Assembly (NCBI GenBank): GCA_965229705.1
Contig: OZ245922.1
Coordinates: 210,001 to 242,000, forward strand
From: Candidatus Saccharimonadota bacterium
GTDB taxonomy: Bacteria > Patescibacteriota > Gracilibacteria > BD1-5 > UBA6164
Direction: 5' to 3'
DNA length: 32,000 nucleotides
The position numbers and the translations under genes are program-made. This document shows positions 1 through 32,000 of the stretch, piece by piece. Below the pieces are notes generated by a model. The model saw nothing but the letters and a program-made list of their open reading frames with translations, was not told the origin of the DNA and did no database searches. Position 1 is the first letter of the stretch; each line of letters starts with the position of its first letter.

Positions 1-1670
1 CTCGAGCAGGCGCGGACTTTAAACCGGGAAATTTTTTATTGCAGTGAGATATTCTTGAGCTATGGCCTGCAAGTAAGGAATATGTGTATACGATAGAATT
101 TTGGTGAGAAGAGGTCTCGCAAATAACGACAAGGCATCCTATATCATGAGAGATATACGAGTATCATGAATATATAGATATTTTTCCCGCAAAACACACA
201 GTTAGTTCTCGAGAGACTATTAACAGGATTGTTCCTCAGATTAAAAAAGATCTTGAAGAACGACTTGCGTATTTTCAAGATGAACGGTGAGATATTGTGA
301 AATATGAACGACTCAAGTCCAAGGTAGAATATGATATAGAAATGATGCAAGAAGTTGGCTATGTAAATGGAATCGAAAACTATTCTCGTTATCTTGATGG
401 TAGAAATATAGGAGAACCACCACAGACTTTGATAGATTATTTTTGAGAAGATTTCCTCACCTTTATTGATGAATCTCATATGACTATTCCTCAGATATGA
501 GCGATGTATGCGTGAGATAGAAGCCGAAAAGAAAATCTCGTAGAAAATGGCTTTCGTCTTCCTGCAGCTCTTGATAATCGTCCTCTGACATTTCCTGAGT
601 TTGAGGCAAAGCTCTCTCAGGTAGTGGCTGTTTCAGCAACCCCCGCAGATTTTGAAATAGGCAGGAGTAGTATAACTTTTACAAATAATGAACAAGAGCA
701 AAAAACCCCTTCACTCACAGAAAAGGAACTTGCAAGTCAAGAGAATGATGGAATCCAAGCCTTTCAAAACTTTGACGCAACTTCCTGACAACTCTGGAAA
801 GATAGAGATGATCTCAGAGTAGTTCCTCAGCTTATACGTCCTACAGGTTTACTTGACCCGAGTATTTGTATCAAACACATGCAATATATGGTAGATGATG
901 TGATGAAGAATATTTCAGATATTGTAGAAAAAAATCAAAGAATGCTGATTACTACTCTGACTAAGCGATCTAGTGAAGAACTCTCAGAGTATCTCATAGA
1001 TAATGGTGTAAGAGTTCAGTATCTTCATAGTGAGGTAGATACGCTTGAGAGGCTTGAGATTTTAAAAGATTTGAGAGAAGGAAAAATAGATGTGATCGTA
1101 TGAGTGAATCTTTTGAGAGAATGACTCGATCTTCCCGAGGTTTCAAAAATAGCAATTCTTGATGCTGATAAGCAGGGGTTTTTGAGGAGTGAGTCGTCGC
1201 TTATACAGATTATATGACGCGCAGCAAGAAATGCTGAGGGGGAGGTGAGTATGTATGTGGAGAAAGTGACTTCTCCTGACTTGCAAAAAGACAATGTTTC
1301 CTGACAGGGCAATAATACAGAACATCTTACTTTTCTCAACAAAGGGAAGTATATACGCTGTGATGGTTTGGTTATTTCTCATGCTATGAAAAAGGCGATT
1401 GATCTCACATATTATCGTCGAGGGATACAGATCGCGCATAATGAAAAAAAGGGAATTATTCCAAAAACGGTTTATAGTTCTATCAAGGATATTGGTATCC
1501 CAAGTAAGAAAAATAAGTTTGAGAAAAAAGACCCAAAAACTCTTGAGCAGGAGATTACAAGACTTGAGCTAGAGATGGATATTGCCGCTGCAAATATGGA
1601 GTATGAACGCGCAGCGGAAATACGCGATGAACTTTTGGAGTTGAAGGGCTCAAAGAAGGGGAAAAAGTAA
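1..1670 (+). CDS. uvrB: Excinuclease ABC subunit B (UvrB), 5' end outside the window
   Basis: The frame starting at nt 3 is open to TAA 1668-1670 when TGA=Gly. Motifs: [13 protein letters not shown](TGA)[29 protein letters not shown], [17 protein letters not shown](TGA)-VNLLRE-G(TGA)-LDLPEV, IIGRAARN, and C-terminal UVR motif [12 protein letters not shown]. Track ORFs 879-1103 and 1368-1670 are fragments of it. Confidence 0.93.
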
Positions 1671-1673
1671 ATA

Positions 1674-1701
1674 TTGTATTTTTGAGAAAAATCTCTATAA
1701 T
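1674..1701 (+). promoter_or_regulatory. Candidate sigma70-type promoter for ssrA (TTGTAT-N16-TATAAT)
   Basis: -35 TTGTAT at 1674-1679 and -10 TATAAT at 1696-1701 with a 16-nt spacer, ending 17 nt upstream of the mature tmRNA 5' end. This is a consensus match only, and the genome is AT-rich. Confidence 0.35.
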
Positions 1702-1717
1702 GCTACTACTCTATTTT

Positions 1718-2176
1718 GGGGTCAATCTTGGTTTCTACTGAGAGAATATGTATTTTTTATATGCTATCCGGGGGATGTGTGTGACCTCCGTAATCAACAC
1801 ACTCGCATATAAATGCAAAAAGAACTTTTGGAGGACTTGCTTCTTTTATGAAGGGTTCTCGCGTAGCTATTGCTGCGTAGTCTAGACTTACTTTTTAAGA
1901 TCTAGAGTGGCCTTCCGTAAAACGGTATGAGTGCGATTGCCTGCCACATCATCTCTTTCTCGTTTCTTTGAGCGTCGGGAAGGGATTATTACAATTCAAA
2001 GCATGATTTTGCAGTTGTAAGATACTGTCTGCATCATCAGGGTATAACACAGTATTTTCCGGAAGCGTGTTTGTCTTTTTTCTTGTAAGTTTCTGTGTAT
2101 AGTAAAAAAGACTATGATAGTAGATGTATAGGGGATACCTCTCAGGACGTCGGTTCGAATCCGTCTGGCTCCACCA
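1718..2176 (+). ncRNA. ssrA: tmRNA (SsrA)
   Basis: The 5' GGGGTCAATCTTGGTTTCTAC and 3' GGACGTCGGTTCGAATCCGTCTGGCTCCACCA form a tRNA-like domain: acceptor GGGGTCA/TGGCTCC with G-U at position 3, T-loop TTCGAAT, and a CCA end. 5' CTGAGAG pairs with 3' CTCTCAG. An internal tag frame (from about GCA 1815) reads ...GLASFMKGSRVAIAA and stops at TAG 1878-1880. The Ala-rich ...AIAA end is typical of tmRNA degradation tags. Confidence 0.87.
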
Positions 2177-2257
2177 ATTGAGTTTATAGTAAATAATCTC
2201 TATTTTTAGGGGTTATTTTTTTTCGATTTTTTATTGTTTTTAAAAATAACATTTCTG

Positions 2258-2325
2258 GCATATTAGAAAAAAATAGGTGGCTAAAATCTAGAGTATTTGG
2301 CATTATAGAGCTGAATACTTTTTTA
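2258..2325. repeat. Left copy of an imperfect ~68-bp direct repeat bracketing the RM gene
   Basis: GCATATTAGAAAAAAATAGGTGGCTAAAATCTAGAGTATTTGGCATTATAGAGCTGAATACTTTTTTA aligns with 4924-4990 at about 53 of 68 positions (hand alignment, one 1-nt gap). Long identical blocks include GTGGCTAAAA, TATTTG, TATAGAG and TGAAT. Confidence 0.6.
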
Positions 2326-4641
2326 TTTCAACAATTCGTATTCAAATAGCTTTTCCTGTATCTGCTTTTCATAGTATTCTTTCAGAAATTTTTTCATATC
2401 CTCAATCTTTGTATTGAGTGTTACATACTTAACACTGACTTGTTTCTTTTCTGCTTTATTGAGACTGAGGCTTTTAAGTTGGTTTTTCGTATAACTTTTG
2501 CTATCATAAATATAAGTGTTCAGTTCTTGAATAATTTGATACAAGCCATAGGTATAATCAGGGTTATAGTTTTCTGTCTTTTTTGCTTCTCATAATAGTT
2601 CATCCCATAAAGCTAAAATATTTTTATCGGTATTATTTAAAGTGAGTTTTGAGAGTTCTGTATCACTGAAGGTATTTTGCGAGAGACAAAGTTCATTTTT
2701 ATAAAATCTTTTGTCACTTCATGTAAAACTCAAACATTTGTTTCTTTGTGTAAGGCAGGTAAATATGAGGCAAGATCTTAGCAAATCACTATCTTGTATA
2801 TAATTCTCTCATCTGTCTGCTGTAGTAAAATATACATCTCGCTCATACCAGTTTTCTTGTGGATAGAGTTTTGCACAAAAAAGTGGAAGTTTCTTTACAA
2901 AATTATCTGCCCTGAGATAAAAGCCAAAACTTTGATCCAATGCTGTTTTATATATACATCGAGTGAGATTTTCATGTTTTGCTTCAATAGACCATCAAAT
3001 CACTACAAGATATGCAATAATATTCGTATTAAATACAGGTGTTTTTTTATAATTTTTTACGCTTTCTTCTCAGTTACTTTCACAACAAATTCATCTTTCA
3101 TCATTTTCAAATTTTCTTTTATCATTGTATTCGTTAAACCTCCTGTAAGTCTTTTGAATCAGAATATCTTTTCAAATATCCTCTATCTGACCGTCTTTTA
3201 TATCGAAGCATTTTAGCTCTATAGACTCTGAGTTATGATCTATATTTTTCCATAGTATGCATGAAATAAAACTTGGTGTTGCATGAAAGTGTTTTCTATT
3301 AAATCAATACCCATCAATAAATTTTTTATTTACGAGGTGTAAACTCTTATAGTATTTTACTGGACTGAATAAGAGTAAATAATCATCTTCTTTTTTGAGA
3401 TAATACTTCAGTGCCGACCAGATAAATAAATTACTAATATCTCTATGAGTCGCTTGATCTGTTCAGTTTTTAACCATTTCATTGTATACGAAACTTGTAT
3501 TCGATTTTCCATTATTATTTTTTATATTTTCAGCGATACTATCTCTATAAGGAGGATTTTCAAAAATAATAATATTACATTTAGGATTTTTTACATATCC
3601 ATTTAGTTGATTGATACATTCCTTATATTTTTCATCTAAGGGTTCAACTGAAGTTTGTTCTCAAAGTATAAAATGACGTGATAGAGCGTCTCATCACTCG
3701 ACTAAACTATTTTCGGCACTTACATCAGGAGGTATAATGAGTCGAACTTTATCTATAAACTTGTTATATAGTACATTCCATTCCCAAGTCTCATAAGTAG
3801 ATAACACACAGTGTGAAAGCTCCTGCTCTGTAAGAAAATTTTCTAATTGCCCCGTACCTGCACATCTATCAAGAATGATATAATCATGGTCTTTTGGAAT
3901 TTTCGAGATAGCAAGTCTCAGGAGTTCCATAGACTTTTGAACATAGGGATCAGGAGTATAAAACGCTCCGAGTTCTTTTTGAAGAAACTTATCATTGAGG
4001 CAATCAATCAGTCATGGAAACTCTTTTTTTGATTTTTCGTATACTCGATCTTTGTCTTCTGCATACTGATGTATATACAGAAATTTTGGATCAATAAGTT
4101 CTTGTACAAATTCTAACTTATGGTATTTTTTTTGAATCTTCATTTCAATACTCCCATCGTTTACTTTTTCATAATAGGACTTTGAAAGTCATACAATATT
4201 ATTCTTATCTACATGAACTTTTATATATTCCTCATTTTTTAGTACTTCTACGATAGCTGAAAGATTGTTTTCATAATCAATTTCTTCAGCTGTGATACTT
4301 GTCGTAAAATTTTTATTATTTTTACTTGCTCATCAGACATATGGAGTCTCTATTTCTTCCAGAAAATCTGAACTTTGAAAAAGATACGATTTTTCATTAT
4401 TCAGAGATACAAGGAGAATCTGAGAAGGAATATTTTTTCATAAATTCCTCATACGGGAAAGATATTTGATAGCTTGAAAAAGAACGGTATTTATATTTGG
4501 GATAGAGAGCTTAAACTCTATCAGTGTTCATCGTATTACTCCATCAGTATTGTGTTCTATTGTTGGAATAGTTTTGTTAAATATTTTGAGGTTGTTATAA
4601 AACTGAGTTTGTCACTCAAGCTCTGTGAGAAATGGGGACAT
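2323..4641 (-). CDS. Single-chain type IIL/IIG restriction-modification enzyme (MmeI-like): N-terminal PD-(D/E)xK nuclease plus gamma-class N6-adenine DNA methyltransferase plus C-terminal specificity region
   Basis: One 772-codon frame from ATG (4641-4639) to TAA (2325-2323), with 19 in-frame TGA by my count and no TAA/TAG. The N-terminal TDGVIRGTLIEFKLS...AIKYL...ILLVSL resembles the MmeI D-X(8-9)-E-X-K nuclease core. Motif X is LGAFYTPDPYV, motif I is ILDRCAGTGQLENFL, and motif IV is IIIFENPPYRD. Track ORFs 3694-3930 and 2323-2544 are fragments. Confidence 0.7.
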
Positions 4642-4923
4642 AAAAAAGCACTTACTTACTAAAGTAGGTGCCAAAATAAGAAGAAGTAATTGTAGTAATG
4701 GCAAACAAAAAGGGGGATCAAAGCCCATATTTAGTTCGCCAAAACTACAACTTTATACTCATTAAAAGTAGAAAGAGGGGTAGGGTTTAATCCCCCAAGC
4801 TTGTACTCTTAAATAAGTAAATCATAAAATTGTAATTTTGGCTTTTACAATATATATCTTTTAAGGATTAAATCAAAGAAAGTTTTTATATAGATTATTT
4901 ACAACAAAAAGTATTATTTTTCA

Positions 4924-6127: not shown

Positions 6128-6976
6128 TTATACATCAGATCTTGCGAGAGCCTTATCTTTTTCCTCACGGATGATTTCTTTTTGTTTGATAATTCCTACA
6201 AGACTCAGAGCAATATCATAGAGTAGCTTTTCATCATTTTCTCTAAAATCTTGTGAACGATTTGCTATCACAATATACCCCATCAAGTTTTCTCATATTT
6301 GCAAGGGAACATGTAAAGTTTTTGTGAGTACTTTAATGCCTTCTTGTTGTATTTTTTTTATATCAAGTTCAGCTCACTCAAACTCTATGATCATATTCAT
6401 ATTTCATACAAGAGAGCTATAGTGAAGTTTAAAGTAATTTTCCATAACAATATTTTTTTCTATATACATGATTTGCTCAACTCAGAGAAGCAGTCGAATT
6501 TTTTCCAAAAGATCACAGAGAGATTCGAGAGTGATTTCTGATATTTCCGCAATGGCAAGATTCACCTCATGATGAATAGTGATTTCTCGATTGGCTTTCT
6601 CAAGGCGAAAATGTGATATATGAATAATCGAAGTAAGAAACACAAAAGCAATCTCAGGAGACTCCTGAAACATTTGCTCTATCATATCAACATGAATTTT
6701 TAAAAGAGCAGTATTACGAATAGCTCTTACATCAGCAGATTTTTTGATATCTCTGTTTTTGAGAGAGGATTCTCACACTATATCCCCTAGAGGAATATTT
6801 CATAAAACTTTTGTTTGTGATCGATGAAGAGTATTTTGTCTTTCTACTACAAGCTCACCATCATAAACAATATATATGTAGGGATCTATATCTCATTCTC
6901 GAAACAAAAACTCTCATGCATTGAGGTGTATGAGTTCAAAAAATCATGATTTATACAGTGTTTCTAAGGGGAGCAT
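6128..6976 (-). CDS. Cyclic-nucleotide-binding (CAP-effector type) domain plus GAF domain protein, no recognisable output domain
   Basis: 282 aa, ATG 6976-6974 to TAA 6130-6128, with several in-frame TGA. The N-terminal half reads FLFREGDIDPYIYIVYDGELVVER...LGDIVGESSL...RSADVRAIRNTALLKI, the classic cNMP-binding beta-roll pattern. The C-terminal half reads ...LHVPLQI-G-ENLMGYIVIANRSQDFRENDEKLLYDIALSLVGII, a GAF-like end. The start codon overlaps the pilT stop (TAATG). Confidence 0.72.
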
Positions 6977-8052
6977 TATCCAAGAAGATTACGAATATTT
7001 TCTGTGTCACGAGCAAAACTCATCACGGTATCTTGAGAAATATACCCTTTTTTATAGAGGGCTACAAGATAGTTATCCATGAGAATCATCCCTTGTTTTT
7101 GAGATACTTCGAGGACAGAATACAATTGATGTGTTTTTCCACTTATGATTAGATTTTTCGTTGCATCGTTATTCATCAGTACTTCTCTGAGAGCTATTCG
7201 TTCATCTTTATCTGATCTCGGAATGAGTCTTTGAGCGATGATTCATACGAGACTCATAGCCAACTGCATGCGTATTTGAACCTGCTGAGTACTAGGAAAT
7301 ATATCAACTATTCTATCAATAGTTTGTACAGTATCGTTTGTGTGGAGAGTAGAGAGAACAAGATGACCAGTCTCTGCAAGAGTGATCACTGCTTTAATTG
7401 TCTCAGGATCACGCATTTCTCACACAACAATGACATCTGGATCTTCTCTGAGAGACGCCTTAATAGCTGATGGAAAACTCTTTGTATGTGTACCCACTTC
7501 TCGTTGATGTATGAGAGAGAGCTTATTTTTAAAAACAAACTCAATAGGCTCTTCTATAGTAATGATATTTTTTTTATATTTTGTATTAATATACTCTATC
7601 ATAGATGCAATATTTGTTGATTTTCCACTTCCTGTTGGACCTGTGAAGAGTATGAGTCACTTTGTTTTTCAGGCAAGGGAACGGAGAGATTCTCCAAAAC
7701 CAAGACTTTCCATACTTGGTATTTCTTCAGGGATAATACGAAGAGCAATACAAAAACCATGAATATCTTTGTAACAATTTACCCTATATCTTGAAAGTGT
7801 ATTTTTGTGATAGTACGAACTATCAAATTCCATATTTTCTATGAATTTTGTATAATTTTCCTTTCACAAAATTTTAAGAATAATTTTCTCAACATCTTCT
7901 GAAGTGAGGGGAGAGGTATTTGTATCTATATACTCTAGGTCTCCATTTTTATTTCTCACAACAAATACAGATGAACTGGATATATGTATGTCTGGACATC
8001 CTTTTTGGTGAGCAAAAGAGAGAAGCTCTTGAAATCTATTGAGTATTTCCAT
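6976..8052 (-). CDS. pilT: Type IV pilus retraction ATPase PilT
   Basis: 358 aa in one frame across TGA codons. Motifs: [28 protein letters not shown]..., Walker [35 protein letters not shown](TGA)-[19 protein letters not shown] stop at 6978-6976. Confidence 0.9.
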
Positions 8053-8238
8053 ATGTTTTTGAAAAGAATATTTTTCTCTTTCCTGAGAATATCATATTTT
8101 CTTATACAATACGAGAAAGAGATATTGCTTATTTTCTAAAAACAATAGTAAAAATATATTTTTGTTTTTTTGATTAAACACTCATTTTTGTTACACTCAA
8201 AGACAATACATATATTTATTATTTTTGAGGTGAAAAAA

Positions 8239-10350
8239 GTGCAAGACATTTTCCAAAATTGAGAGGATTTTGAAGAAAAATTAGACATTTCGCCGAGTGA
8301 CTATGGTTCTTTGCAGGTTTCACAGCGAGACGCACTATGAGAAATCAATGATGTATACACATCTTCTCGAAAAAAAGAGCAAAAAGTAGAAATAAAAAAA
8401 GATAAAAATATATATGTATCTCAAAAAGAAAAATGAAAAAATGTTGATAGCCTATTTCAGAGAAAAAGCTTTTTTTCCTTTGTTCCATACAGATCTTTCT
8501 TACGATGAAAGTGGAGGACATACTATGGATATTGTTGTGAAAGGTTCAAGAAGAGAGATTTTTTACCTATCATTCGATCTGGATCGTTTTTCTCTCAAAG
8601 AAGACTTTTACTCATTCTTGGTATATGTGTGTATATTATTCTGAGCCTCTCTCTTGTAGAGACGAGTCTCAATGCAGGATACAAAAAACTCATTGCTCTA
8701 AAAACGCTGTCAGATATACATGATATGCAAAAGACGGCAAATAATGCGCGCCTTGATTTTATTGTGGCTCAGACTTTTTTTTATCCATATTCTTTTCTTC
8801 CATGAAAACGCACTGAAACTATTACTGGAGCTATTTGATGAGGAAAACATATAAGTAGATCTATAGAGAGTCTTTGAAATATGACCCTAACTATTCAAAA
8901 CTGACTCACATCTCAAGAACAAAAACTGACAGATGTTCTTATAGCGATATATCCAGAGCTGACTTCTCTGCAAACTGAGCTTTCACAAGGATTAAGTTTT
9001 TATGAAGAAATATCATGGTTTCCAAGTGAGAATATTAAGAATGTATTTTGAGAATATATTACGCAAATTAGGCAAAGTGCTGATCGTTTAAAAATACTTC
9101 AAGAAAATTACTGACAGTTTGTGAAGATGCTCGGGCATAACGAGAGGAAGAGATATCTGATCGTATTTCAAAATGCAGATGAGATTCGTCCGTTGTGAGG
9201 ATTTATGTGATCTATGTGATTTTTAGAAATATTTCGTTGAGAACAAAAACTGTTTCAGATGAAGGATGTGTATGCAATAGAGTGGGATCTTAAATCTGCA
9301 AATTATGAGAGGAGAAATGCTCCAAAAGGTCTTGATGAGCTTACGGATACTTTTTGACTGCGTGATGCTAATTATTTTGTGAGTCTTGAAGAGTCTTCAA
9401 AAGCAATAGATTTTTTCCTGAGAGAGGCCTCTATATCTATAGATGGGATTATTTATATCAATCATAATATTTTGTATGATATTTTAGATGTGAGTTGAGA
9501 AATATATTTGGAGAACTTTGATATTCCTATAACAAAAGACAATTATGCCTCACTTCTCTCATTTCTTGTGGAGTCAAAGGTATCACAATCAGCAACACTT
9601 GATACCCCAAAACAAGCAGTATTTGATCTTGCTTTAGAGTTAGAGAAAAAGATAGTGCAAGAAAACCTATATCTTCCTATCTTACAATCTCTTTTAGATC
9701 AAATATATTCGGGGGATATGTTTGTCTGGATGAAGGAGAGCTCAGATCAAAAAATCATTACTGATATATGACTTTCTTGAGAAAAAAATTATGCTGCTTC
9801 TTTGGATTTTCTCTATCCGGTATTTACTTCACTTTCATGAAATAAGTCTGATAGGTATATATCGCGAGAGTACAGAACTCGTGTGAAGCGCGTGAAAAAC
9901 TCTTGTGATTTTTGAGTGCGTCATACAATCTCTCAAAAACACAATATGCGTCGACAAGACAAAGAAGAGTTTCAGTCATATGCTGAGGTGACTGGTATAG
10001 CATTCACCCGTGAAATGCTCACTCTTCAATGAGCGTCAAAAAATCGACAATATGTGAGGACGATAGTTCCAGTTGAAACGGATATAAGGGAGTATGATTC
10101 AGCAGAAGTGATAAACTATGGAACCCGTAAGGGAATAGAGTTTTTTATCGATACTCCAGAGCAGGGGAGCAGCGAGTTTTCTTTTGAGTATTTGTTAAAA
10201 AACCCTGAGTGTGATCCTTATAGCGTCACATTTTTTAAGCAACCATGAATCAAGAGGTATGAGGTGTTTCTTGATATAGAGGGGGAGGAGTATGAGTACA
10301 ATGGTATAAGTCGGGATTTTTATTTTGAAGATAGAACATATGAACAATAA
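8239..10350 (+). CDS. DUF4012-like membrane-anchored envelope protein
   Basis: 703 codons from GTG 8239, which follows GAGGTGA with a 5-nt gap, to TAA 10348-10350. It contains many in-frame TGA and no TAA/TAG. There is a basic N-terminal region, then a TM helix LLLILGICVYIILSLSLV, then RYLIVFQNADEIRPL-G-GFM-G-SM-G-FLEIFR-G-E...DVYAIEWDL...LRDANYF...IDGIIYINHNIL. As far as I recall, this matches the DUF4012 signature (FQN..E.RP.GGF.GS.G). Track ORF 8414-8644 is out of frame and ends at a genuine TAG (8657). Confidence 0.65.
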
Positions 10351-10497: not shown

Positions 10498-11811
10498 ATG
10501 ATGCAAAATTTAAAAAAAATGATACCCCTTGATAACCCTATAAGGCTTTGATATCATCTCCTTAGAGCAGTGATTGCAAATATTTTTTATATGTTCCCGA
10601 GTCGGAATATGGTCATAGTATGAGTGACTGGTACCAATGGAAAAACTACAGCCTCAAATATCATAGCCGAGTGACTCAGAGCAAGTGGAAAAAAAGTATT
10701 TATGTTTACGACAGTGAATATTATTCTTGGAGATGAAACATTTACCAATGAGTCAAAGATGACATCACCAGATGTTTTTGAACTTCAAAAATGGCTATCA
10801 ATCGCAAGGAAGAGAGGCTGCGAGGTTGCGGTTATAGAGACAGCGAGCCATGGCATAAAAATGCATCGAGTATGGGGACTGAACTATGATGTTTCTGTAC
10901 TGACAAACATCACGCAAGATCATCTCGATTTGCATAGAACAATGGAGGATTATGTTGATACAAAACTGACTATTTTTCGAAAATTGATGTTATATGAACG
11001 AAAACCAGGAGTCAAAAAAACAGGAGTTATCAATATAGAGAGTGATTATGCAGATATATTTTTAGAGCAAACTTATGACAACTTGTACACATATTGATTT
11101 ACGAGGGGTGCGAGTATCTCAACCAGTGATGTAAAAAATAAGAGAGATGGAATGGAATTTACCGTAAAGATTCCATGAGATACATTAGAGATTAGTACCA
11201 CTCTACGATGAAAATTTAATGTTGCAAATATTCTGGCATCTATAGGGGTACTTATTTCTCTCTGAGTTGAGAAAAAGATTATAGAGTGTGCAATACAAAA
11301 GGTTCCTGGCGTTCCAGGGAGAATGGAAGAGCTGAAATCATCTGATGGTTTTTTTGTATTTATAGATTATGCCCATACTCCTGATGCTCTAGAAAATGTT
11401 CTTACAACTCTTGAAGGTATCAGATCAAAGTGAAGAATTATTACTGTTTTTGGTGCTTGTGGAGAGAGAGATACAAGTAATAGACCAAGTATGTGATCGG
11501 TAGTCTCAAAATATTCTGATATGGTTATCCTGACACAGGATGATGATTATGGGGAAAAACCAGAAGATATTATCAAAGATGTTATCCCTGGAGTTAATAG
11601 AAAAGAGGGAGAGGATTTTTGGGTAATCCTTGATAGGACAGAAGCAATCAGGACAGCTCTTGTAATGGCGAAAAGATGAGATATCATCTTGATAGCGGGA
11701 AAAGGAGATGAACATGTGAGAATCACAAACGATGGACCAATACAGTGGCATGATAAGACACTTGTGCTGAAAGTACTCTCAGATATTGAAGAAAATGCAA
11801 TTATGAAATAG
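10498..11811 (+). CDS. murE: Mur ligase, UDP-N-acetylmuramoyl-tripeptide synthetase (MurE-like)
   Basis: 437 aa. Motifs: VIV-G(TGA)-VTGTNGKTT, ETASHG, TNITQDHLDLH, GKFNVANILA, VPGRME, DYAHTPDALENVL, VFGACGERD, LIAGKGDEH. TAG stop at 11809-11811. The N-terminal domain is short (~40 aa before the P-loop). The DAP-specific DNPR motif is replaced by TQDDDYGEKP. Confidence 0.85.
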
Positions 11812-13307: not shown

Positions 13308-14288
13308 ATGTTTATAAGAGTTGTGCCTTTTTCTCGGAGCTTTGATAGCTATGGTGTCACCTATAGTGTCCCAACTCTCTACCAATCATCGATACAAGCA
13401 TGAATGATTGTAAAAGTTCCTTTTGGAGAAGAAGAGATTTTGTGAGTGGTTTTTGGAGTTTTTTGAGATAACAAGCTTGAGGCTGGTCTCGAAATCTTCC
13501 CTAAGAGTAAAGATATTGAGATCAGAGATATGATAGAAATATATGATGATTTTGTATATCTTTCTGGTGAGCAGTTAGAGCTTGTAGACTATATATCACA
13601 GCATTATTTTTGTGTTATACATCATGCTCTTGGCTTATTTTTTCCAAAAAATTTGCGGCAAAAAATTGAGAAAAAAACGGTAAAAAAAATACAAAAAAAA
13701 GAGTATCACTACCACACTCCAGACATACGCCTCTCAGAAAAACAAGCTGAGATATATCACGATATACATCACTCTCAAAATCTTATTTCTCTCTTATATT
13801 GAGTAACTGGGAGTGGGAAGACACAGATATATATGAGAGCTATTGCAGAAAATATACAAAAATGAAAGCAGGTACTTTTACTGATTCCAGAGATTATTTT
13901 AAGTTCGCAGATAGGGGAGAGAGTACAAGAGGTGTTTTGAGAAGGTGTGGTATTTCTTCACTCTGGTGTGAGTTTGGCAAAAAAGGCTCGTTACTGGATA
14001 GATATATATTTTGGAAATATAAAGATTATTGTATGAACGCGTAGTAGTCTCTTTTTTCCTTATAATAATCTTTGAATGATTATTATGGACGAAGAACATG
14101 ATGAGAGTTATACTTCAGACATTGTTCCTCGTTATCATGCAAGAACACTTGCAGAAAAGATTGCTTCACAGAGAAACATTCCTTTTCTTATGGGTTCTGG
14201 AACTCCTCGGGGAGAGACTTTTTATAAAGGTTTACAGTGAGAGTACAATATTTTTCAGCTTTTGGAGGTGTATACAAATAAGAAATAG
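13308..14288 (+). CDS. priA: PriA-like primosomal helicase, N-terminal half only (ends after helicase lobe 1)
   Basis: 326 aa. The N-terminal DNA-binding region (VKVPFGEEEIL-G-VVFGV) is followed by motif I LLY-G(TGA)[39 protein letters not shown] (motif II) and LMGSGTPRGETFYKGLQ-G-EY, then TAG at 14286-14288. No Cys-rich region or second RecA lobe follows. The convergent clpP ends 29 bp later. Confidence 0.75.
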
Positions 14289-17368: not shown

Positions 17369-17395
17369 GTCTTATTTTTCTAAAAAATAACAATT

Positions 17396-20758: not shown

Positions 20759-23700
20759 ATGAACAAAGCAGATTTTCAAAAAAACTATAACATGCTCAAT
20801 CCCGAGCAAAAAAAAGCAGTTGATACTCTTGACGGACCGATAATGGTCATAGCCTGACCCGGAACAGGAAAGACGCAGATAATAGGAATGCGAACTGCAA
20901 ACATCATCCTCAAAGCTTGAGTCGATGCAAGCAATATTCTGATCACTACTTTTACCGAGGCAGGCGTTCTCGCAATACGAAAAAGACTGATTTCTATGAT
21001 AGGAAGTGAGGCATATAAAGTGCAGGTATCAACCATACACAGCTTTGCGCAAGATATTATCAAGTCTTTTCCTGAAAAGTTTACTGAGGATAAGATGAAT
21101 ACCGCGCTTGACAGCATAGAAAGCCTCGAGATCATATGAGATATTCTCTCAGGGCTCCTCTCAAAACATCAGCTCGAATATCTCACTACATATGGTGATC
21201 CCCTTTTTTATGGGAGAGAGATTTCACAACAAATACAAAAAATAAAATGAGAAGGGATATCCCCGTCAGACTTTCAAGATATTATAGATGAAGAAGAAAA
21301 AAAATCACTGCAGTGGCTCGAAGAAAAACGAAATAATCCCCGCATCAAAAAAATAGAAACCTACCAAGAAAAACACGAGAAATATATAGGGAAGCTCAGA
21401 GAACTCCAAAAAATCTTTCAACGCTATGAAGAGTTTTTGAGAGAAAAGAGCTTGTATGATTTTCATGATATGATCAATATTGTTCGTAAAAGACTTTCAG
21501 AAGATACTCAGATGCAGGCATATTTTGCCGAAACATTTCAATATATTATGATAGATGAGTATCAAGATACTAACACCCCTCAAAATGAGATTATTGGACT
21601 CATAGCAGAGCAATCAGAAAACCCCAATATTATGGTAGTTGGAGATGATGATCAGTCTATTTATCGTTTTCAGTGAGCGAATATCGAGAATATGCTAGGT
21701 TTTAGTACCTCATATCCTCAAGCTCTTTTGATAGTGCTTACAAAAAATTATCGTAGTACACAAAGCATTCTTGATGCGGCAAAGTCCTGTATAGAACATA
21801 ATAGTGAAAGACTGATACAAAGAATACCAGGACTAAAAAAACATCTTATTTCACAAGTCTCTACCTCTACACAGTGAAACATCCCCTCTCCATGACAAGA
21901 CAAATCATCTGTCTCTCTCTACGAAGCAGCAACAAATATCCATGAAGATCTCTATATTCTCAAGAATATAGAAGCATGCTTGTCATCATGAGTCGCGCAA
22001 GAAGATATAGCAATCATTGTTCGATCAAATACAGAGGTTATCTATTATTCTTACCTTTTAACTCAAAGAGGGATTGCTCTGAGCTCAAAGTTTGAATCAA
22101 ATATCCTTGACTCAGATATTATACAGCTCTTACTTTCTTGCGTAAAAATAGTTGAAAATCCCTACGAACATGAGAAAGACTTACTTGATGTTCTGCGGTC
22201 TCGTTTTTCTGGAATATGCCATATGGATAGCCTCAAGATGAGTCATTTTCTTTATAAACAAAACTATGGAAAAACTCGAAGGTATGCCATGAGAATATTT
22301 GATCTCTTGAGTAATGAGCAGCGTCTAAAAGAACTTGATCTGAGAGATCAAGACTCCTGCCTCGCTTTTGTTCAAAAAATTCTTGATCTGCAGAGGATTG
22401 CTGCAGAGAATAATTTTGCGTATTTTCTCTCAGAAATGATTGAACACTTTGAATTTCTCAGCTGAGAAAAACATATATGTCGTCTTGAACAGCGAGCAGA
22501 TATACTGACGCTTTTTCATGAAGTTCGATCATGGATGAAAGGAAGAAAAAGTATGAGCATTCAAGACTTTCTCAAAAAAATAGAACTCTACATGACTCAC
22601 GGATATCATATATCTCGAATACAGACTCTATGAAAGATATCGGGTATACAAGTACTGACAGCTCATAGCTCAAAGGGTCTCGAATATGAGTATGTTTTTG
22701 TTCCATGACTCAGAGTTGGATCTTGGGAAAGTAAGATGACTCGCAAACTGATATCTCTTCCAGAGTGAATGACGGGAAATGGTCTCCAGTTTTCAGATAT
22801 CAGTATGATGAGTGATGTAGAAAAGAAAAAATATCTTTCAGAAAGGCAAATGCAAGAAGATAGGAGACTTTTCTTTGTGGCTATCACGCGAGCAAAAAAG
22901 CGGGTGCTTCTTTCTTATCCACAAAGTAAAGATGGCAAGATTCATATTATTTCTCCATTTCTCTGAGAAATTTGAGAGTATGACAGAGATGACTGTATAC
23001 TGAGTGAGTGAGAACTGGCAGAGTGAATGAAGAGTGTTATACAAAGAGAATCAAGTTGTATAGAATACGCTGATGATATATTTGTGTATATAGAACAATT
23101 TTTTGAAAACTACAAACTCTCAGCAAGTGATCTCAATACTTTTTTATTGAGTCCTAAAGACTTTTTATATCGAACTATTTTATGCTATCCTTTTGAGGAA
23201 AATGAGAATAGTATTTTTGGAACTATGTATCATCGAACACTCGAACTATTTTATCAGCAGATACAAGAGATGGGAAAAGTCCCAGATATCTGATATCTTC
23301 ACTATGTTTTTGACAGGCAACTAGAAAGAGAGTTTGTGACAGATGAACAGTTTCATAGGCTCAAGAAACGCTGATATGAATCACTAGAATGATATTATAA
23401 AAAGTATGAATGAACATTTAGAGCGCCACTGAAGACGGAGTATAAATTCTCTCGAAGAAATGTTTTTTTTGAGGAAATTCCCTTAACTGGAATTATTGAT
23501 AAAATAGAGCTTATCAGTGATGATTTTCAGCCTCATACTTATGTTGATTGAGGTCAGGGAGGTCTTTTTTCTCAGAGTGTGAGGATTACAGATTATAAAA
23601 CCTGAGCAGCAAAATATCTCTGACAGATCAAATGACAAGACAAAGATGGAAATGCTTTTTCAGGATATGAAGAAGGGAGGCATGGTCGTCAACTTATGTT

Positions 23701-23911
23701 TTATAAACTGTTGTTTGAAAATGATTATGAGCTTCATTCACAGTTTCAGATAGGAGAGTTAGAGCTCGATTTTTGTGAGGGAAAAAATGGAAAATACAAA
23801 CGAGTTTCTGTAGAGTTTACCGATGAAGAATATAAAGAATTTCAAAATCTTGTAAAAAAGAGCTATGCTCAGATGAGGGATGTAGATTTTTGGAGAGAGT
23901 TTCTCGGGTAG
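20759..23911 (+). CDS. UvrD/Rep-family SF1 helicase fused to a C-terminal PD-(D/E)xK (RecB/AddA-type) nuclease
   Basis: 1050 aa, joining seven same-frame track fragments across TGA. Motifs: Walker A VIA-G(TGA)-[80 protein letters not shown]. The C-terminal nuclease-like motifs are LTGIIDKIELI ... VRITDYKT-G- ... GRQLMFYKLL. TAG stop at 23909-23911. Confidence 0.85.
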
Positions 23912-23915
23912 TTTC

Positions 23916-24476: not shown

Positions 24477-24555
24477 AATACTTTGTATAGCTATTGTTTT
24501 ACATATCTTATAAACTTTTCTGAAAAATACATTTAAAAATCTTGCAAAAAACCAT

Positions 24556-26904
24556 ATGCTTCTTGGTATGAAAGCAAACAATAAACAACAAGAAGCCATC
24601 ACTCACACCAAAGGTCCACTCCTGATTATTGCAGGAGCAGGTTCAGGGAAAACGGCAACATTGACTCAGAGAGTGCAGTATATGATTTCTGAAGAAGGCA
24701 TTGCTCCTTGAAATATTCTTGCTCTTACCTTTACCAATAAGGCAGCAAGTGAGATGAAAGACCGTATAGGCTGAGCTATAGGATCACAGTATCATCCTCA
24801 TATGTCTCGAAATCGTCACCTGCCATATATCGGGACATTTCATAGTTTTGGGATATATATCTTAAAAGATATATTATCAGCAACTTTTCCTACCTGACTT
24901 TCGAGTGAAGAAATATCAGAAATGATAGGCATAAAAAAAGACTTTATTATCTACGATGAAAGTGACAAACTTTCAGTAATGAAGGGGATTATCAAAGATG
25001 ATATGTGACTGATTGAAAAAGAGTTCCCTCCTCGTCAAATAGCTTATTATATCTCTGACGCTAAAAACAAATTACTCAATGCAAAGCAATATACAAATCA
25101 AGCTGATACGCACTTTAAAGCAGTTGTGGCAAAAGCATTTGAACTCTATGAAAAAAAATTGAGAGAAAATAACGCTATGGATTTTGATGATATACTCTTA
25201 AAACTTTTAGCTACTTTTTGTATTCCTCAAGTAAAAGATTTTTATCAAGAAAAATACACATATATCATGATAGATGAGTATCAAGATACCAACCTTATAC
25301 AGTATGAGATAGTCAACCTGCTTGCAGAGAAATATCAGAATATTGCCGTAGTCGGTGATGATGCTCAGTCCATTTATTCTTGGCGTTGAGCGGATATGAG
25401 AAATATCCTTTCTTTTAAAAAAGACTATCCCAGTGCACTCGTAGTAAAGCTGGAACAAAACTATCGTTCAACAAAAAATATTCTTGCAGGAGCAAATCAT
25501 GTTATCAAAAATAATACGGAATCTCTCGAAAAAAATCTTTGGACAGAAAACACTGAAGGCGAAAAAATACAAATAGTAGAAAACAGCGATGATCGATCTG
25601 AGGCAAGCACTATAGCTGAAAACATTAAAGATTATGTAAATACTTCACCCTCAGCCTCTCTCCTTAGAGGAGAGGGGAGTACAAGGAAGTATTCAGATAA
25701 CCTCATCCTCTACCGCACCAATGCACAATCACGCTCTATAGAAGAGTGACTGCTGAAGCATGCTATACCATATAAGGTTATAGGAGGCATGAAGTTTTAT
25801 GACAGAAAAGAAATCAAAGATATCCTTGCCTATCTCAGACTCATTCATAATAGTAGTGATCCAGTGAGTTTTCTCAGGATTATTAATACTCCTTCTCGAA
25901 AGATATGAGCAAAATCACTTGAAATGCTTTCGAGCTTTCGAAACTCTTTTGGTATTTCCTTTATTGATGTACTTGAGAGTATAGATGATATCAAAGACCT
26001 CAGACCAGCTGCAAAAGAAGCCCTGAAATGATTTTATGAGACTTTTTGTATTTTAAGTGAATATTCGCGCACTCATAGTGTGAGCCAGCTTATTTCTGAA
26101 GTTATTAAGAGAGTGTGATATCAAGAGTATCTCCGAACACAATTTTCAGAAGTAGAGTATGAAAGTAAGAAGGAAAATCTCTCTGAACTAGGAAATGTTG
26201 CGAGTGAATACTCGGGGCTCGAACCAAGAGAATCCCTTTCTCTTTTTCTTGAAGAAGTGGCACTTATCAGTGATCTTGATAATCTCACTTCCAACCCCTC
26301 TCTTTCCCAAGAGAGTGGAGCTCTCAAAGAAGAAGATAGAGGCTTTGTGACGCTTATGACGATTCATACCTCAAAATGACTTGAAGAAAAACGAGTCTTT
26401 GTTGCAGGACTTGAAGATGGTCTTTTCCCACATTCACGAACACAAAATAATCCAAGTGAACTTGAGGAAGAACGGCGACTCATGTATGTTGCAATGACGA
26501 GAGCGAAAGAAGAACTTTTTCTCTCTTACGCTAAAGAGCGTCTATACTTTTGAGACTATGTTCGCAATCCAGTAAGTAGGTTTTTGGGAGAGATACCAGA
26601 GGAGTATACAGAGTCTCAGGAGAATGCTTCGAACTCTTTTTCTGGGTTTTCATTTGCTCCCCTCTCATCTAAGGAGAGGGGTTGGGGGTGAGATATAAAG
26701 AATCATGAAGAGAGGGGAGTTCCTGTTGGAAGAGAGATAGTTCAAAATGATGTTTCTCTGTTCAGAGTGTGATCCCAAGTTGAGCATCCCCGTTTTGGTG
26801 TATGAGTGATAGATAGTATGATAGGAGAAATAGCAGAGATACGATTCCGAGAAGGAGTAAAAAAGATGAATATTCGTATTGCTCCAGTAAAATGTATTTC
26901 GTAA
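24556..26904 (+). CDS. pcrA: ATP-dependent DNA helicase PcrA/UvrD
   Basis: 782 aa from ATG 24556 (an in-frame ATG also at 24568) to TAA 26902-26904. Motifs: [107 protein letters not shown]. The C-terminal module reads HPRFGV-G-VI. Confidence 0.92.
25655..25677. repeat. CTCTC/GAGAG-core hairpin element, copy A (in-frame in pcrA)
   Basis: CCTCTCTCC-TTAGA-GGAGAGGGG forms a 9-bp stem including one G-T pair. It encodes ...[10 protein letters not shown]... within an apparent insertion before LYRTNAQSR. Confidence 0.6.
26298..26315. repeat. CTCTC/GAGAG-core hairpin element, copy D (in-frame in pcrA)
   Basis: CTCTCTT-TCCC-AAGAGAG forms a 7-bp stem, preceded by CCCCT. It encodes ...NPSLSQES... within an apparent insertion between ISDLD and VTLMTIH. 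Confidence 0.45.
26659..26681. repeat. CTCTC/GAGAG-core hairpin element, copy B (in-frame in pcrA)
   Basis: CCCCTCTC-ATCTAAG-GAGAGGGG forms a perfect 8-bp stem. It shares the arm GAGAGGGG with copy A but is read in a different codon phase (GAG AGG GG versus G GAG AGG GG...). GAGAGGGGAGT recurs at 26711-26721 and at 25670-25680. Confidence 0.6.
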
Positions 26905-26916
26905 AAATTATTTCTT

Positions 26917-27813
26917 ATGAATAAAATAGCACTTCTCACATGATGACCAGGCTATGAGAGAAATATCGCGCTGAGTTCTGCCAGGTTTTTTGAACAGTTT
27001 CTTTCCTGTGATTATGAAAAATTTCTTCTTCCAGAAGAGCAAGATATTTTTATGCAGAGAGCATGAGAGTTTGATATTGTAGTCCCAGTTCTTCATGGAG
27101 AATATGGAGAAGATGGAAAAATACAGAAACTCTTAGAAGAGAAAAATATACCATATATAGGTTCAAATTCTCATACAAGTGAGTTATGTATGGATAAAAA
27201 AAGAGCCAATATTATAGCGCGTGATAATTGATTACGCGTCCCTCAGGAGATTTGTTTTCAAAAGTGAGAAAAAATCTGAGAAGCAGACTTGTATCTTGAT
27301 TTTCCTGTGATGGTAAAACCAAAACGAGGCTGATCAAGCTATTATACGTATAAGGTCTGAGATTTTTGAGAACTTCAGCAAAGACTTAGGGAGATACATG
27401 AAAATATTGATGACGATATTTTGTTGCAAGAGTATATACTCTGAGATGAATATAGCGTTCCAGTAGTAGATAACGAAGTTCTTCCAATAATGAAGCTAGA
27501 GAAAAATAATTCAGAAGATTTTTTTGACTATGAGTCGAAATATGAATCAGAGTCATGAATGAGAGAAGTGTTTTGACAGGCGAGTTTTGAGATTCGAGAA
27601 AAACTTACTCACGCAACAAAACTTGCACAGAAAATATATGATCTAAGATGATATTTTCGAGTAGATTTTATAGTGAGATGAGAGGAGGTATTTTTCCTTG
27701 AAGTAAATACTATTCCTGGAACAACAGAGTCATCGATACTTCCAAAGGCATGGAGACTGACAGGAAGGACAAATGAGCAGATGCTGAGTGCTATACTTAT
27801 GTCAATGCACTAG
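26917..27813 (+). CDS. ddl: D-alanine--D-alanine ligase
   Basis: 298 aa. Motifs: MNKIALLT-G-G-PGYERNIALSSA, PVLHGEYGEDGKIQ, MDKKRAN, FPVMVKPKR-G-GSS, RVDFIVR-G-EEVFFLEVNTIPG. TAG stop at 27811-27813. Confidence 0.88.
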
Positions 27814-27872
27814 CGTGGAATGAATGAATCACAATCAAAAAGCTTCTCCTTTATTATATGTAAAAGCTCATT

Positions 27873-28565
27873 TTATAATCTTCAGTGGTCTATATTATCT
27901 ATAATTTGTGTGAGTATAGAGAGAGTATCGAATTTTTTTCATACTACAAGTCACTCAAATATAATAGGAAGCTCAGTACATGCTACAAGAACGGCATCAG
28001 TATTATATTTTTTTACTATCTGACTTATAAAATCTTTATCTTCAGAGCTTACGGAATCTTTCATAATGTTTTCTATGACAGCGTCTATTTGTTTTTGCTC
28101 TTTATCATTCACTCTAGTATATCAGATATTATACTTTTCTAGGTATATATCATAGAGTCGGGTCTCTCTTGTAGTATGAGAACCAAGTATGAGAATATTT
28201 TTCACGTCTGTTTTTTCTACTTGCTTCACAGTTTCTTCTATTAGATTTATAATCTTTCCTAAAGAATTACTTTGAAGAAAGTCATAGTATATATGAATCG
28301 TGTTACATGCCATGAGAATTGTATCCACTCACGCTTTTTCAATTTGTCTCACTCATGTAAGAAGTCACTGCTTGACTATACTTTCATCTTCGATTCCTTT
28401 TTCGGAGAATCCACAAAGACTCAAACTATTAATAATAAGGTGTGGGTACTCATAATCTTGAATAGCATTATATTTTTTCTGATAGTGATTCAGTATGCCC
28501 TTATAAAGGTAACAGCTTGCTTCAGGTCACATTCCTCCAATGATTCAGATAATATGTTTTTTCAT
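27873..28565 (-). CDS. Aspartate/glutamate racemase family protein
   Basis: 230 aa. Motifs: MKKHII-G-IIGGM-G-PEAS, DTILMACNTIH, ILILGSHTT, AVLVACTELPII. TAA stop at 27875-27873. Track ORF 28122-28328 is the central fragment. Confidence 0.85.
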
Positions 28566-28579
28566 AGTAGTAGTTTTAG

Positions 28580-29466: not shown

Positions 29467-30012
29467 ATGAAGCACAAAAATATATTACTTTTAGACATAA
29501 ACGATACTCTTGATGATGGTCGAACAACGGAAGAGTTAGAGTCTTGAGCTTTTGATGATTTTTTTATACGAGGTAAAAGACATATCCCAGGAGTTGCTAT
29601 TCCAAAGGAGTGAATAGAGCGATTTTGAGACTTTTTAAGAGAATACCATGATAGGATTATTCCTATTTTTTGGACGGCAGTTTGAGTTCGCAGCCAAGAA
29701 AGATTTGTGCATGAAGTCTTGAAAGCTCCTGTATACGCTTTTTCAACAGATTTTAAAGCAGGAGTTTGAGAGTTACTTGTTCCATGAAAACCAAAGTTCT
29801 ACTCCGAGTCTGTTGCAGGAGGAAATGGTGGCTCGAAAAGTGCAGCACTTCCAAAGGTCTTTTCACGCTTTGGAGAATGAATAAATACTATATGGTTTGA
29901 AGATTGTAGGAATAATAGCTCTTTTTCTGAAGATAACATACATGGGATTGGTATAAAGAGATTTGAATCTCTTGTATCAAAAATAGAAGAAATAAAAAAT
30001 CTGCTTGTATAA
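29467..30012 (+). CDS. HAD-superfamily-like hypothetical protein
   Basis: 181 aa. MKHKNILLLDINDTL resembles HAD motif I, but reads D-x-N-x-T. Other HAD-like motifs: IIPIFWTA (motif II-like Thr), GGSKSAALPK (Lys), IWFEDCRNN (acidic motif IV-like). TAA stop at 30010-30012, inside the terminator hairpin. Confidence 0.5.
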
Positions 30013-30024
30013 GCAGATTTTTTG
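29994..30024. terminator. Bidirectional rho-independent terminator between convergent genes
   Basis: AAAAAA-AATCTGCTT-GTAT-AAGCAGATT-TTTTT is a perfect 9-bp stem flanked by an A-run and a T-run. It lies between the stops at 30012 (+) and 30040 (-). Confidence 0.8.
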
Positions 30025-30039
30025 TAATATTCAGAAAAA

Positions 30040-31008
30040 TTATTTCATCAGATCACTTCCTGCAATGAGTTTGTCTCCCTTTGAGAGAGACCTTCCCTCA
30101 AGATCTTCATTGAGGTAAATAACCTTTGAGTTTCCATCACCGCCAACATTTCCGAGCGTCTCAATTCGTGAAGAATCAAGAAGGAACTGAAGGACTTTTT
30201 CAGCGTTAAGAGAATCATCAGTTTGTTTAATCATATCAACAGCATCTTTAAATCCTTCTGCAATCTTTGTTCGTTGCCCTGCCATACCTTCTCAGAGAAG
30301 TATTTTTGATTCTTTTTCGGCTTCTGCTTGTTTTACCTGCATGATCTTCTCAGCCTCTCACTGGTTCATTGCTGCCTCCTTGAGTTTTTGCGTTTCTACT
30401 ACCTTATTCATGGCTTCCATAACGGTATTTTGGAGTTTTACATCACGCACTTGAATAGAGTCGAGCTTATATCCAAAACCTGCAAGTCTCGCCCTCAATC
30501 TCTCTTCTATCTCACTTCATATTTCTTCCCGTTTTGCAAATATCTGCTTATGCGTAAACGATACGATCATTCCACGAAGTTGTTCATCTATCGTAGACTT
30601 CATCATCGTGCGCGGGTCATCAATAGAGTAGACAGACTTATAAATAGTTCCTGCTTGCGTATTATCACTATCATCTTCGACATAGTAGATAACATTGAGA
30701 CCAATATAGGCAGTAACATTGTCACTTGTTACCCCCTCGACCTCAACAGGGAAGTTTCTTCTGTAGAGCACCTGATTACGAGTTGTTTCCAAAAAAGGAA
30801 TAATAAAGTTGAGTCCTTGCCTCAGGATACGATCAAACTTTCCAAGAAACTCAACGGTACGCACCGTATTTGGAGAAACAATACGAACAGATAGGGCAAT
30901 CAGTATAAGGTCTATAACAATACCTGTATACAATCCACTGAGACCTCATGCTGATAGAGCTATAAGAGGGATAATAATAATCAAAGCAGGAACAATAAAT
31001 CGAAGCAT
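30040..31008 (-). CDS. SPFH/band-7 (stomatin/prohibitin-like) membrane protein
   Basis: 322 aa. MLRFIVPALIIIIPLIALSA-G-GLS is a TM anchor, then IVSPNTVRTVEFLGKFDRILRQGLNFIIPF...YYVEDD...IDEQLRGMIVSFTHKQIF...DSIQVRDVKL is the SPFH core, followed by an A/E/K-rich coiled coil. Four in-frame TGA. TAA stop at 30042-30040. The M of track ORF 30517-30933 is an internal TTG. Confidence 0.85.
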
Positions 31009-31175
31009 AAATTTATGGAGTTAAAAATGTAAGATACACAGGAAAGTATATAAAAATTTTATGCAAAATAAAAAATATTTTTATACTCCACACACTAAAG
31101 ATATGTCATATAACTTACACATATACTATGAAGTACCTTTTTCATTTCATTATTTTTCTTTGATGTCTTTGCAGT

Positions 31176-32000
31176 ATGAGTCATACATTCGCTCTCCAAC
31201 AAGACCCAGACTATATATTTGTATCTGAAGAAACAAATGGTGAGAAAACACAGCTCATAGTTCCAGAAGATATTGACTGGACACAAAGGTTTATCCTCAC
31301 AGAAATGAAAGAACTCAGAGGAGACATCATAGGATACAAGAAAGAAATCGAATCAATGTTGCATCAAAAAGAACTTGCACTCGTAGACAGAGCACTTTCC
31401 TATAGTGCAAACACGGTAAATTTCTTTTTTGTGGTACTTACTATTGCCATTATGGCTATCTGACTATTTGGGTGGAAGACCGTTCGTGACCTCAAAGAAA
31501 ATCTTTCTATCAGATTTGAAAAAGAGGTGGAGAAACGCATAGGTGCGGAACAAAAAAAGCTTGAAGCATTTATGCTCAAATTTGAAGACGACCAACTCAA
31601 ACAGTCACAAGCTATCCTTGAAAATCAGGCATTTCTCCAAAAAAAACAAGAGGCAGCATATTATTGGAGTCAGTATAATAGAGAAGAAAACTCCGCGCAA
31701 AAAATCGACCTGCTTGAGAGTATTTCTTCGATTGGTATCCAAGAAGATGAGATACTCATTTTGATAGAAAAATCCTCTATTTATATAGAACTAGAGCTTT
31801 GGGAAAAAGCTCTTGAATCCTCAGAAAAAGGTCTGGAAATATCATCAGAAAACACGGCTCTACTATATACAAAAGCAAAATCCTTGATGATGTTGGAAAA
31901 CACAGAAGATGCCCGTACAGTACTGATAAATATTCTGTGACTCAACCCAGCTATGAAGCAGGAAATTATAGAAGATGAGTTATTTCATCCTCTTATTCCA
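31176..32000 (+). CDS. Hypothetical membrane protein with coiled-coil and TPR-like C-terminal region, 3' end outside the window
   Basis: ATG at 31176. TM segment FFFVVLTIAIMAI-G(TGA)-LFGW, followed by helical EKEVEKRIGAEQKKLEAFMLKFEDDQLKQ... and TPR-like IELELWEKALESSEKGLEI...LLYTKAKSLMMLENTEDA. The frame is still open at 32000. Confidence 0.6.

Follow-up and report, generated by a model that had tools for sequence, protein, structure and literature searches.

The window analysed here, a 32,000-nucleotide (nt) stretch of contig OZ245922.1 with a G+C content of 35%, almost certainly belongs to a Gracilibacteria (BD1-5) bacterium of the Patescibacteria, or candidate phyla radiation (CPR), that uses translation table 25: UGA is an abundant glycine codon, UGG the sole tryptophan codon, and UAA and UAG are the stops. 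A first-pass annotation of the window had proposed that UGA is a sense codon for glycine throughout, and four independent lines of evidence agree with it: the alignment columns of GltX, solved structures of homologues, the DNA of recoded relatives and the scores of NCBIfam family models.

Reading frames and the residue at UGA

With the standard code (table 11), a listing of open reading frames (ORFs) contained just two of at least 150 amino acids (aa) in 32 kb, the longest being 194 aa. Taking TGA as sense yielded ORFs of 1053, 809, 796, 732 and 591 aa as the largest ones. Freeing TAG or TAA instead gave maxima of only 233 and 352 aa, respectively, so the recovery is specific to TGA, and the earlier statement that the standard code shatters the genes was borne out. 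A greedy, non-overlapping gene set of 27 ORFs bounded by TAA or TAG covered 90% of the window. In-frame TGA codons occurred in 24 of the 27, including every gene with an assigned function except the one for an RRM protein; ORFs 15237-15740 and 5718-5981 are among those free of TGA. The 26 complete ORFs terminate at TAA (16) or TAG (10). That none ends in TGA, as the first-pass annotation had also claimed, is built into the way the ORFs were delimited. However, alignments with homologues in the PDB stop 1-16 residues short of the C-termini set by TAA or TAG in GltX, ClpP, PilT, Ddl, MurE and UvrB, and this agreement with solved homologues means that no gene requires a TGA stop.

We counted 8,997 codons in 22 retained ORFs. 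In-frame TGA accounted for 203 of them and for 203 of 553 glycine codons (37%), making it the most frequent glycine codon. Glycine content is 3.9% from GGN codons alone and 6.1% once TGA is added; tryptophan content is 0.56% and would be 2.8% were TGA read as tryptophan. The in-frame TGAs fall on glycines of well-known motifs. All nine motifs quoted in the first-pass annotation were located, with TGA exactly at the claimed sites; they are given below together with motif III of PcrA, in genes identified with Pfam and NCBIfam.

3..1670, plus strand: uvrB, C-terminal 555 aa with the 5' end outside the window; 12 TGA; Pfam UvrB/Helicase_C; motif IV-TGA-VNLLRE-TGA-LDLPE with TGA at 1101-1103 and 1122-1124
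6976..8181, minus strand: pilT-family ATPase gene; 6 TGA; Pfam T2SSE, NCBIfam TIGR01420; motif VV-TGA-EMRD with TGA at 7420-7422
10498..11811, plus strand: murE; 10 TGA; Pfam, NCBIfam; P-loop V-TGA-VTGTNGKT with TGA at 10621-10623
11832..13307, plus strand: dnaX; 14 TGA; Pfam; P-loop FT-TGA-PR-TGA-TGKT with TGA at 11955-11957 and 11964-11966, by direct translation
13308..14288, plus strand: priA, N-terminal half only, 327 aa, ending in TAG; 9 TGA; Pfam PriA_3primeBD, DEAD; Walker A motif Y-TGA-VTGSGKT with TGA at 13800-13802
14318..14938, minus strand: clpP; one TGA, at 14501-14503, in GGAE-TGA-Q; Pfam
15872..17368, plus strand: gltX; 9 TGA, 6 TGG; NCBIfam TIGR00464; motifs HI-TGA-S with TGA at 15923-15925 and IR-TGA-DEW with TGA at 16508-16510
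20759..23911, plus strand: UvrD-type helicase with a C-terminal PD-(D/E)XK nuclease; 24 TGA; Pfam; Walker A motif IA-TGA-PGTGKT with TGA at 20855-20857
24556..26904, plus strand: pcrA/uvrD; 14 TGA; Pfam; motif III WR-TGA-AD with TGA at 25387-25389
26917..27813, plus strand: ddl; 14 TGA, 64% of its glycine codons; Pfam; motif T-TGA-TGA-PG with TGAs at 26941-26946

Within the window itself, blastp aligned the Walker A TGA of the helicase-nuclease with a GGA glycine codon of its paralogue PcrA.

For GltX, a single scan of the GTDB species genomes yielded 80 loci, 79 of which passed a length filter. The column table was built from 68 standard-code homologues (those lacking in-frame TGA) and the pooled percentages from 67. 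Six of the nine TGA columns held glycine in 67, 63, 45, 68, 66 and 68 of 68 homologues; two of the other three were variable and one was a gap. Tryptophan was the most common residue at none of the nine in the multiple alignment. Pooled glycine shares were 72% at TGA columns, 77% at GGA columns and 82% at GGT columns, and by this alignment the TGA columns are indistinguishable from GGA and GGT columns in their glycine share. Four of the six TGG columns carried tryptophan in 60-65 of 68 homologues, and the pooled TGG columns were 62% tryptophan. In one recoded relative (L006), 18 of 22 GltX TGAs likewise fell on glycine-majority columns. An apparent in-frame 'X' in the GltX of a Neomarinimicrobiota locus (L049) proved to be assembly Ns and contains no TGA.

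We also compared nine genes, each with its best homologue in the PDB, whose sequences are independent of metagenome gene calling. The 73 aligned TGA columns comprised 44 glycines, 1 tryptophan and 28 variable positions, distributed as follows.

UvrB, structure 9gy7: glycine in 9 of 10 aligned TGA columns
MurE, structure 4bub: glycine in 6 of 9
DnaX, DNA polymerase III gamma/tau 1njf: glycine in 4 of 5
PriA, structure 6dcr: glycine in 6 of 9
PilT, structure 6ojx: glycine in 3 of 5
ClpP: glycine at the single TGA column, in both ClpP structures displayed
Ddl: conserved glycine in 5 of 14, the remainder variable
PcrA, structure 1pjr: glycine in 6 and tryptophan in 1 of 11
GltX: glycine in 4 of 9

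Tabulating the residues aligned with TGA, a check that the first-pass annotation had itself proposed, thus returned columns dominated by glycine (44 of 73 in structures, 72% in pooled GltX), and neither tryptophan nor noise.

A codon-level comparison of DNA, which is free of annotation, set the window genes against nine loci of recoded relatives (L001-L007, L081 and L083). Across 202 cells, a window TGA faced TGA in 49, GGA in 41, GGT in 12 and GGG in 10 (63 for GGN), and TGG in none; this pairing spectrum is that of the GGA codons of the window. At residue 36 of the zinc-ribbon-like gene downstream of gltX, for example, the codon is TGA in the window and in L002, L003 and L005, GGG in L001 and GGT in L004. 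Window TGG codons faced TGG in 53 of 69 cells, which, with the GltX columns above, upholds the claim that TGG is kept where tryptophan is conserved. Finally, reading TGA as glycine rather than tryptophan raised the NCBIfam score of every gene scored: GltX by 21.7 bits (TIGR00464, 525.3 versus 503.6), UvrB by 32.9, MurE by 23.6, Ddl by 34.7 and PilT by 14.5, for a sum of 127 bits over the five.

Several observations weigh against this picture. PcrA residue 52, encoded by TGA, is a tryptophan in structure 1pjr, although structures 9dci (UvrD1) and 4c2t (DNA helicase II) have glycine there. About 40% of the aligned TGA columns are variable positions and therefore uninformative, and two of the 69 window TGG cells face TGA in relatives. 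The window holds no tRNA gene according to ARAGORN and no release-factor gene according to Pfam. In addition, the use of TGA is uneven among genes, which is compatible with table 25 but left unexplained by it.

Uneven TGA use and alternative codes

The TGA share of glycine codons varies between genes (chi-square p = 1.7e-5). It is low (0-16%) in the RRM protein gene (0 of 8), ORF 15237-15740, clpP (1 of 17) and the gene of a Band 7 protein (4 of 25), and high (55-64%) in the genes of a DUF4012 protein, a racemase and a cNMP-binding protein, in ORF 2323-4728 and in ddl. In relatives, ClpP and Band 7 also show a low TGA share, the gradient being weaker, and the relatives' Ddl-family gene (23-24% identical) is not rich in TGA. 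Leaky or dual decoding could produce such unevenness: UGA would be read mainly as glycine, but slowly or with some misreading (as tryptophan by near-cognate decoding, or with drop-off), and would be selected out of highly expressed genes. The low share in ClpP, the RRM protein and Band 7 fits this, as does its recurrence for ClpP and Band 7 in relatives. Rare non-glycine peptides at UGA in proteomics (PMC4032931) and the ambiguity remarked for U34 wobble (PMC8629427) point the same way. The same pattern could, however, arise if the most conserved genes are under stronger purifying selection or retain older codon states, and we regard leaky decoding as possible but doubtful. Slightly more tentative still is our own formulation from these codon counts, that decoding of UGA as glycine may be costly or slightly ambiguous, so that selection would keep UGA out of the most expressed or constrained genes and let it become the majority glycine codon elsewhere. 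If so, the recoded UGA codon would be a tuning knob linked to expression, and the window would also stand for a lineage that has no near relative among public sequences (protein identity at most 64%).

We then considered an extended code of the Absconditabacteria type, in which CGA and/or CGG would mean tryptophan in addition to UGA as glycine. Codetta predicts tryptophan for both CGA and CGG in Absconditabacteria and for CGG in some Gracilibacteria (PMC8629427), and the G+C content of the window is low. Yet CGA is frequent here, with 75 occurrences among 8,997 codons (about 83 per 10,000). Its partners in relatives are AGA, CGT and CGA, and in standard-code GltX it aligns with arginine or lysine. 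The 10 CGG codons of that count have AGA and CGT as partners in relatives, and the one for residue 640 of PcrA (motif EEERRL) stands where 120 of 120 relatives and structure 1pjr have arginine. CGA is thus not rare, neither codon sits on tryptophan columns, and the extended code was rejected as very improbable. Because CGA and CGG still mean arginine, the code is plain table 25 of the Gracilibacteria/BD1-5 flavour and not the Absconditabacteria (SR1) variant. The first-pass annotation had spoken of recoding of the Gracilibacteria/SR1 type; its glycine at UGA stands, while the SR1 variant with tryptophan at CGA and CGG does not apply, and the window lacks the additional reassignment that the sister clade is reported to have.

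Translation table 4, the code of Mycoplasmatales and several insect endosymbionts with tryptophan at UGA, recovers identical long ORFs. One PcrA TGA column is tryptophan in structure 1pjr, and public PcrA homologues of relatives carry tryptophan at TGA sites, evidently by choice of the gene callers. Among the best 120 PcrA clusters from public Gracilibacteria, the column of the invariant motif III glycine reads 65 glycine and 55 tryptophan, and the mean tryptophan content is 2.9%. Judged by their sequences, these homologues appear to be table 4 translations, which would make those tryptophans false. They are therefore unusable as amino-acid evidence, a role taken here by the comparison of DNA and by homologues from standard-code genomes. 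By that evidence the table 4 reading is refuted, above all by the column tables: tryptophan holds 1 column against 44 for glycine among the 73 from structures, is the commonest residue at 0 of 9 GltX columns and pairs through TGG in 0 of 202 cells, and the reading scores 127 bits below glycine over five genes. It would also imply a composition of 2.8% tryptophan and only 3.9% glycine, and relative L007 has a tRNA-Trp(CCA). We give it barely any credence.

Least credible of all, with a probability we take to be negligible, is that the standard code applies and the TGAs are genuine stops in a decayed pseudogene region or an artefact of sequencing or assembly; table 11 does give fragments only, but the 203 in-frame TGAs favour invariant glycines in catalytic motifs, in-frame TAA and TAG show no such excess, the proteins read through TGA reach 390-590 bits on full-length family models, and TGA positions are common to independent relatives from other samples, which together refute it. 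Selenocysteine was rejected as well, given 203 UGAs in 32 kb that lie on glycine columns.

The choice of table matters for annotation. Table 11 breaks nearly all genes of the contig. Table 4 gives full-length proteins with false tryptophan at about 2% of residues, catalytic P-loop glycines included. In view of both kinds of error, table 25 must be set ahead of any further reading of the window. The phenomenon was known before and is seen here in another member; the value of the finding is practical, for annotation, and knowledge of genetic-code evolution is unchanged.

Decoding machinery and lineage

From what is known of the clade, UGA would be decoded by a dedicated tRNA-Gly(UCA) charged by the normal glycyl-tRNA synthetase, with glycine identity set by G1:C72, C2:G71, G3:C70 and U73, and termination at UGA would have been abolished through loss of release factor 2 (RF2, prfB), leaving RF1 for UAA and UAG. 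Absconditabacteria and Gracilibacteria have been described as reading UGA as glycine with tRNA-Gly(UCA) and without RF2 (PMC8629427; bioRxiv 10.64898/2026.05.24.727570), and proteomics of a BD1-5 bacterium found 97 glycine-specific and 3 tryptophan-specific peptides at UGA (PMC4032931). A tRNA scan of 11 recoded relative loci (L001-L007 and L081-L084) revealed a single tRNA, the tRNA-Trp(CCA) of L007, which is from Gracilibacteria. Scanning metagenome contigs for tRNA-Gly(UCA) with a degenerate pattern returned 120 loci, of which five were tRNA(UCA) genes and the others chance matches. All five carry G1:C72, C2:G71, G3:C70, U73 and CCA on low-G+C contigs, and at least four of the five contigs clearly need TGA as sense. 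Four of the genes (L093, L109, L130 and L190) are near-identical tRNA-Gly(UCA) genes. In the fifth locus, L134 (contig Ga0114938_1001216, 2639-2799), tRNA-Gly(UCA) lies 5 nt from a tRNA-Gly(GCC), and ORF cover is much higher with TGA as sense; ARAGORN draws this tRNA(UCA) with 79 nt and a 6-bp anticodon stem. None of the five contigs is closely related to the window, the best being L134, where the tRNA is next to a distant helicase-nuclease homologue that is 29% identical to that of the window.

The best 120 PcrA homologues among 5.8 billion proteins share 51-64% identity with the window's PcrA. Wherever a source name is given for one of them, it is 'Candidatus Gracilibacteria' and never Absconditabacteria, which supports the earlier placement in a candidate-phyla lineage. 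The best GltX loci come from Patescibacteria or Gracilibacteria metagenome-assembled genomes, in which TGA is also needed as sense. The top one, at 63% identity, is L001 (CP060226.1, 157893-179365), from the complete genome HK-STAS-PATE-10, labelled 'Candidatus Peribacteria'. Its ORFs give a cover of 0.44 under the standard code and of 1.24 once TGA is sense, and it has a conserved gene with an in-frame TGA. Its use of TGA is sparse (0 of 45 glycine codons over ClpP and GltX), and its taxon label seems at odds with the code it uses. Gene order is partly kept in relatives, both for ClpP, GltX and the zinc-ribbon gene and for a transglutaminase-like gene, the helicase-nuclease, PcrA and Band 7. 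The result assigns the sequence to a CPR lineage that is uncultured and probably host-dependent. Judged by protein identity, which is at most 64%, the organism is one without a close public relative inside a clade whose code is well known. Exact searches with the proteins of ORFs 15237-15740 and 5718-5981, and with a 39-mer from the right edge of the window in metagenome contigs, gave no match.

Other features and known recoded systems

The remaining features of the window are listed here; an RRM protein and a cNMP-binding protein were also identified by Pfam/NCBIfam.

1718..2176, plus strand: transfer-messenger RNA (tmRNA, ssrA), 459 nt; Rfam RF00023, 87.7 bits, full length
2323..4728, minus strand: 801-aa ORF; 19 in-frame TGA
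8170..10350, plus strand: DUF4012 protein; 23 in-frame TGA; Pfam
17396..17833, plus strand: zinc-ribbon-like gene, 145 aa; 6 TGA; CPFC...CPKC; conserved in relatives
27873..28565, minus strand: Asp/Glu racemase family gene; 9 TGA; Pfam PF01177
30040..31008, minus strand: Band 7/SPFH protein; 4 TGA among 25 glycine codons

The tmRNA has a tag ORF at 1815-1880, which, with the frame read from the resume codon, encodes AKRTFGGLASFMKGSRVAIAA and stops at the TAG at 1878-1880. The first-pass annotation had the tag frame ending in TAG, and this position and the RF00023 match agree with it. ARAGORN found neither a tmRNA nor a tRNA in the window, and lowering its threshold and setting the Gracilibacteria code made no difference; the tmRNA was found by Rfam alone.

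Other observations concern single genes. Between its two helicase lobes, the partial UvrB has about 49 inserted residues (223-271; window 669-815) that aligned to no solved UvrB. A Pfam search of ORF 2323-4728 gave no match; NPPY and DRCAGTG motifs (the latter SAM-binding-like), found by eye, suggest a putative N6-adenine DNA methyltransferase or restriction-modification fusion. The PriA of the window consists of the 3' DNA-binding domain and the first helicase lobe, solved PriA being about 730 aa long, and its TAG lies 29 nt ahead of the convergent clpP; it may be a truncated, split or lineage-specific short form. In the zinc-ribbon gene, the final TGA (17822-17824) overlaps the ATG of the next gene (17821) as ATGA, with the TAA stop two codons on. 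ORF g15 (17380-17745, minus strand) was rejected as an antisense shadow that, being longer, masked this conserved plus-strand gene. The Band 7 gene is 81-83% identical to the genes of L081 and L083 called as PF01145.

Some stretches lack a supported gene. Between 20032 and 20758 (about 730 nt) neither strand has a convincing ORF, and G+C-rich hairpins are present, the minimum free energy z-score over 20250-20650 being -4.5 on the plus strand and -5.6 on the minus strand. This stretch had no Rfam match up to an E-value of 0.5 and no conservation with the corresponding intergenic stretch of relatives L081 and L083. The regions 28566-29466 and 23912-24555 are likewise without a supported gene; in the former, a minus-strand ORF (28580-29272, 230 aa) is more protein-like than the plus-strand ORF picked by the greedy caller. 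In the latter, the spacer between the helicase-nuclease and PcrA, relatives carry three genes, DHFR included, that the window does not have.

Among known ways of translating in-frame UGA, selenocysteine recoding affects one or a few codons per genome, at cysteine or selenocysteine columns, and needs a selenocysteine insertion sequence (SECIS), whereas the window has 203 UGAs on glycine columns. Table 4 systems (Mycoplasmatales, Hodgkinia, Zinderia, Nasuia, Stammera and some Eggerthellaceae) share UGA as sense, a small low-G+C genome and an expected loss of RF2, but read UGA as tryptophan via tRNA-Trp(UCA), and the window columns are glycine and never consistently tryptophan. Absconditabacteria (SR1) have UGA as glycine in common with the window, and the clade is reported to have tRNA-Gly(UCA) and to have lost RF2 (PMC8629427); there, CGA and CGG are predicted to mean tryptophan and CGA falls below 37 per 10,000 codons, against about 83 per 10,000, arginine-like, in the window. 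Table 25 as used in Gracilibacteria/BD1-5 (GTDB class JAEDAM01, order BD1-5) has the same glycine at UGA, tryptophan at UGG and stops at UAA and UAG, in genomes that are likewise low in G+C and of CPR type, and the nearest proteins of the window bear the name Ca. Gracilibacteria. The window is distant from public sequences of that group, with identities of at most 64% for PcrA and 63% for GltX, but its code is identical.

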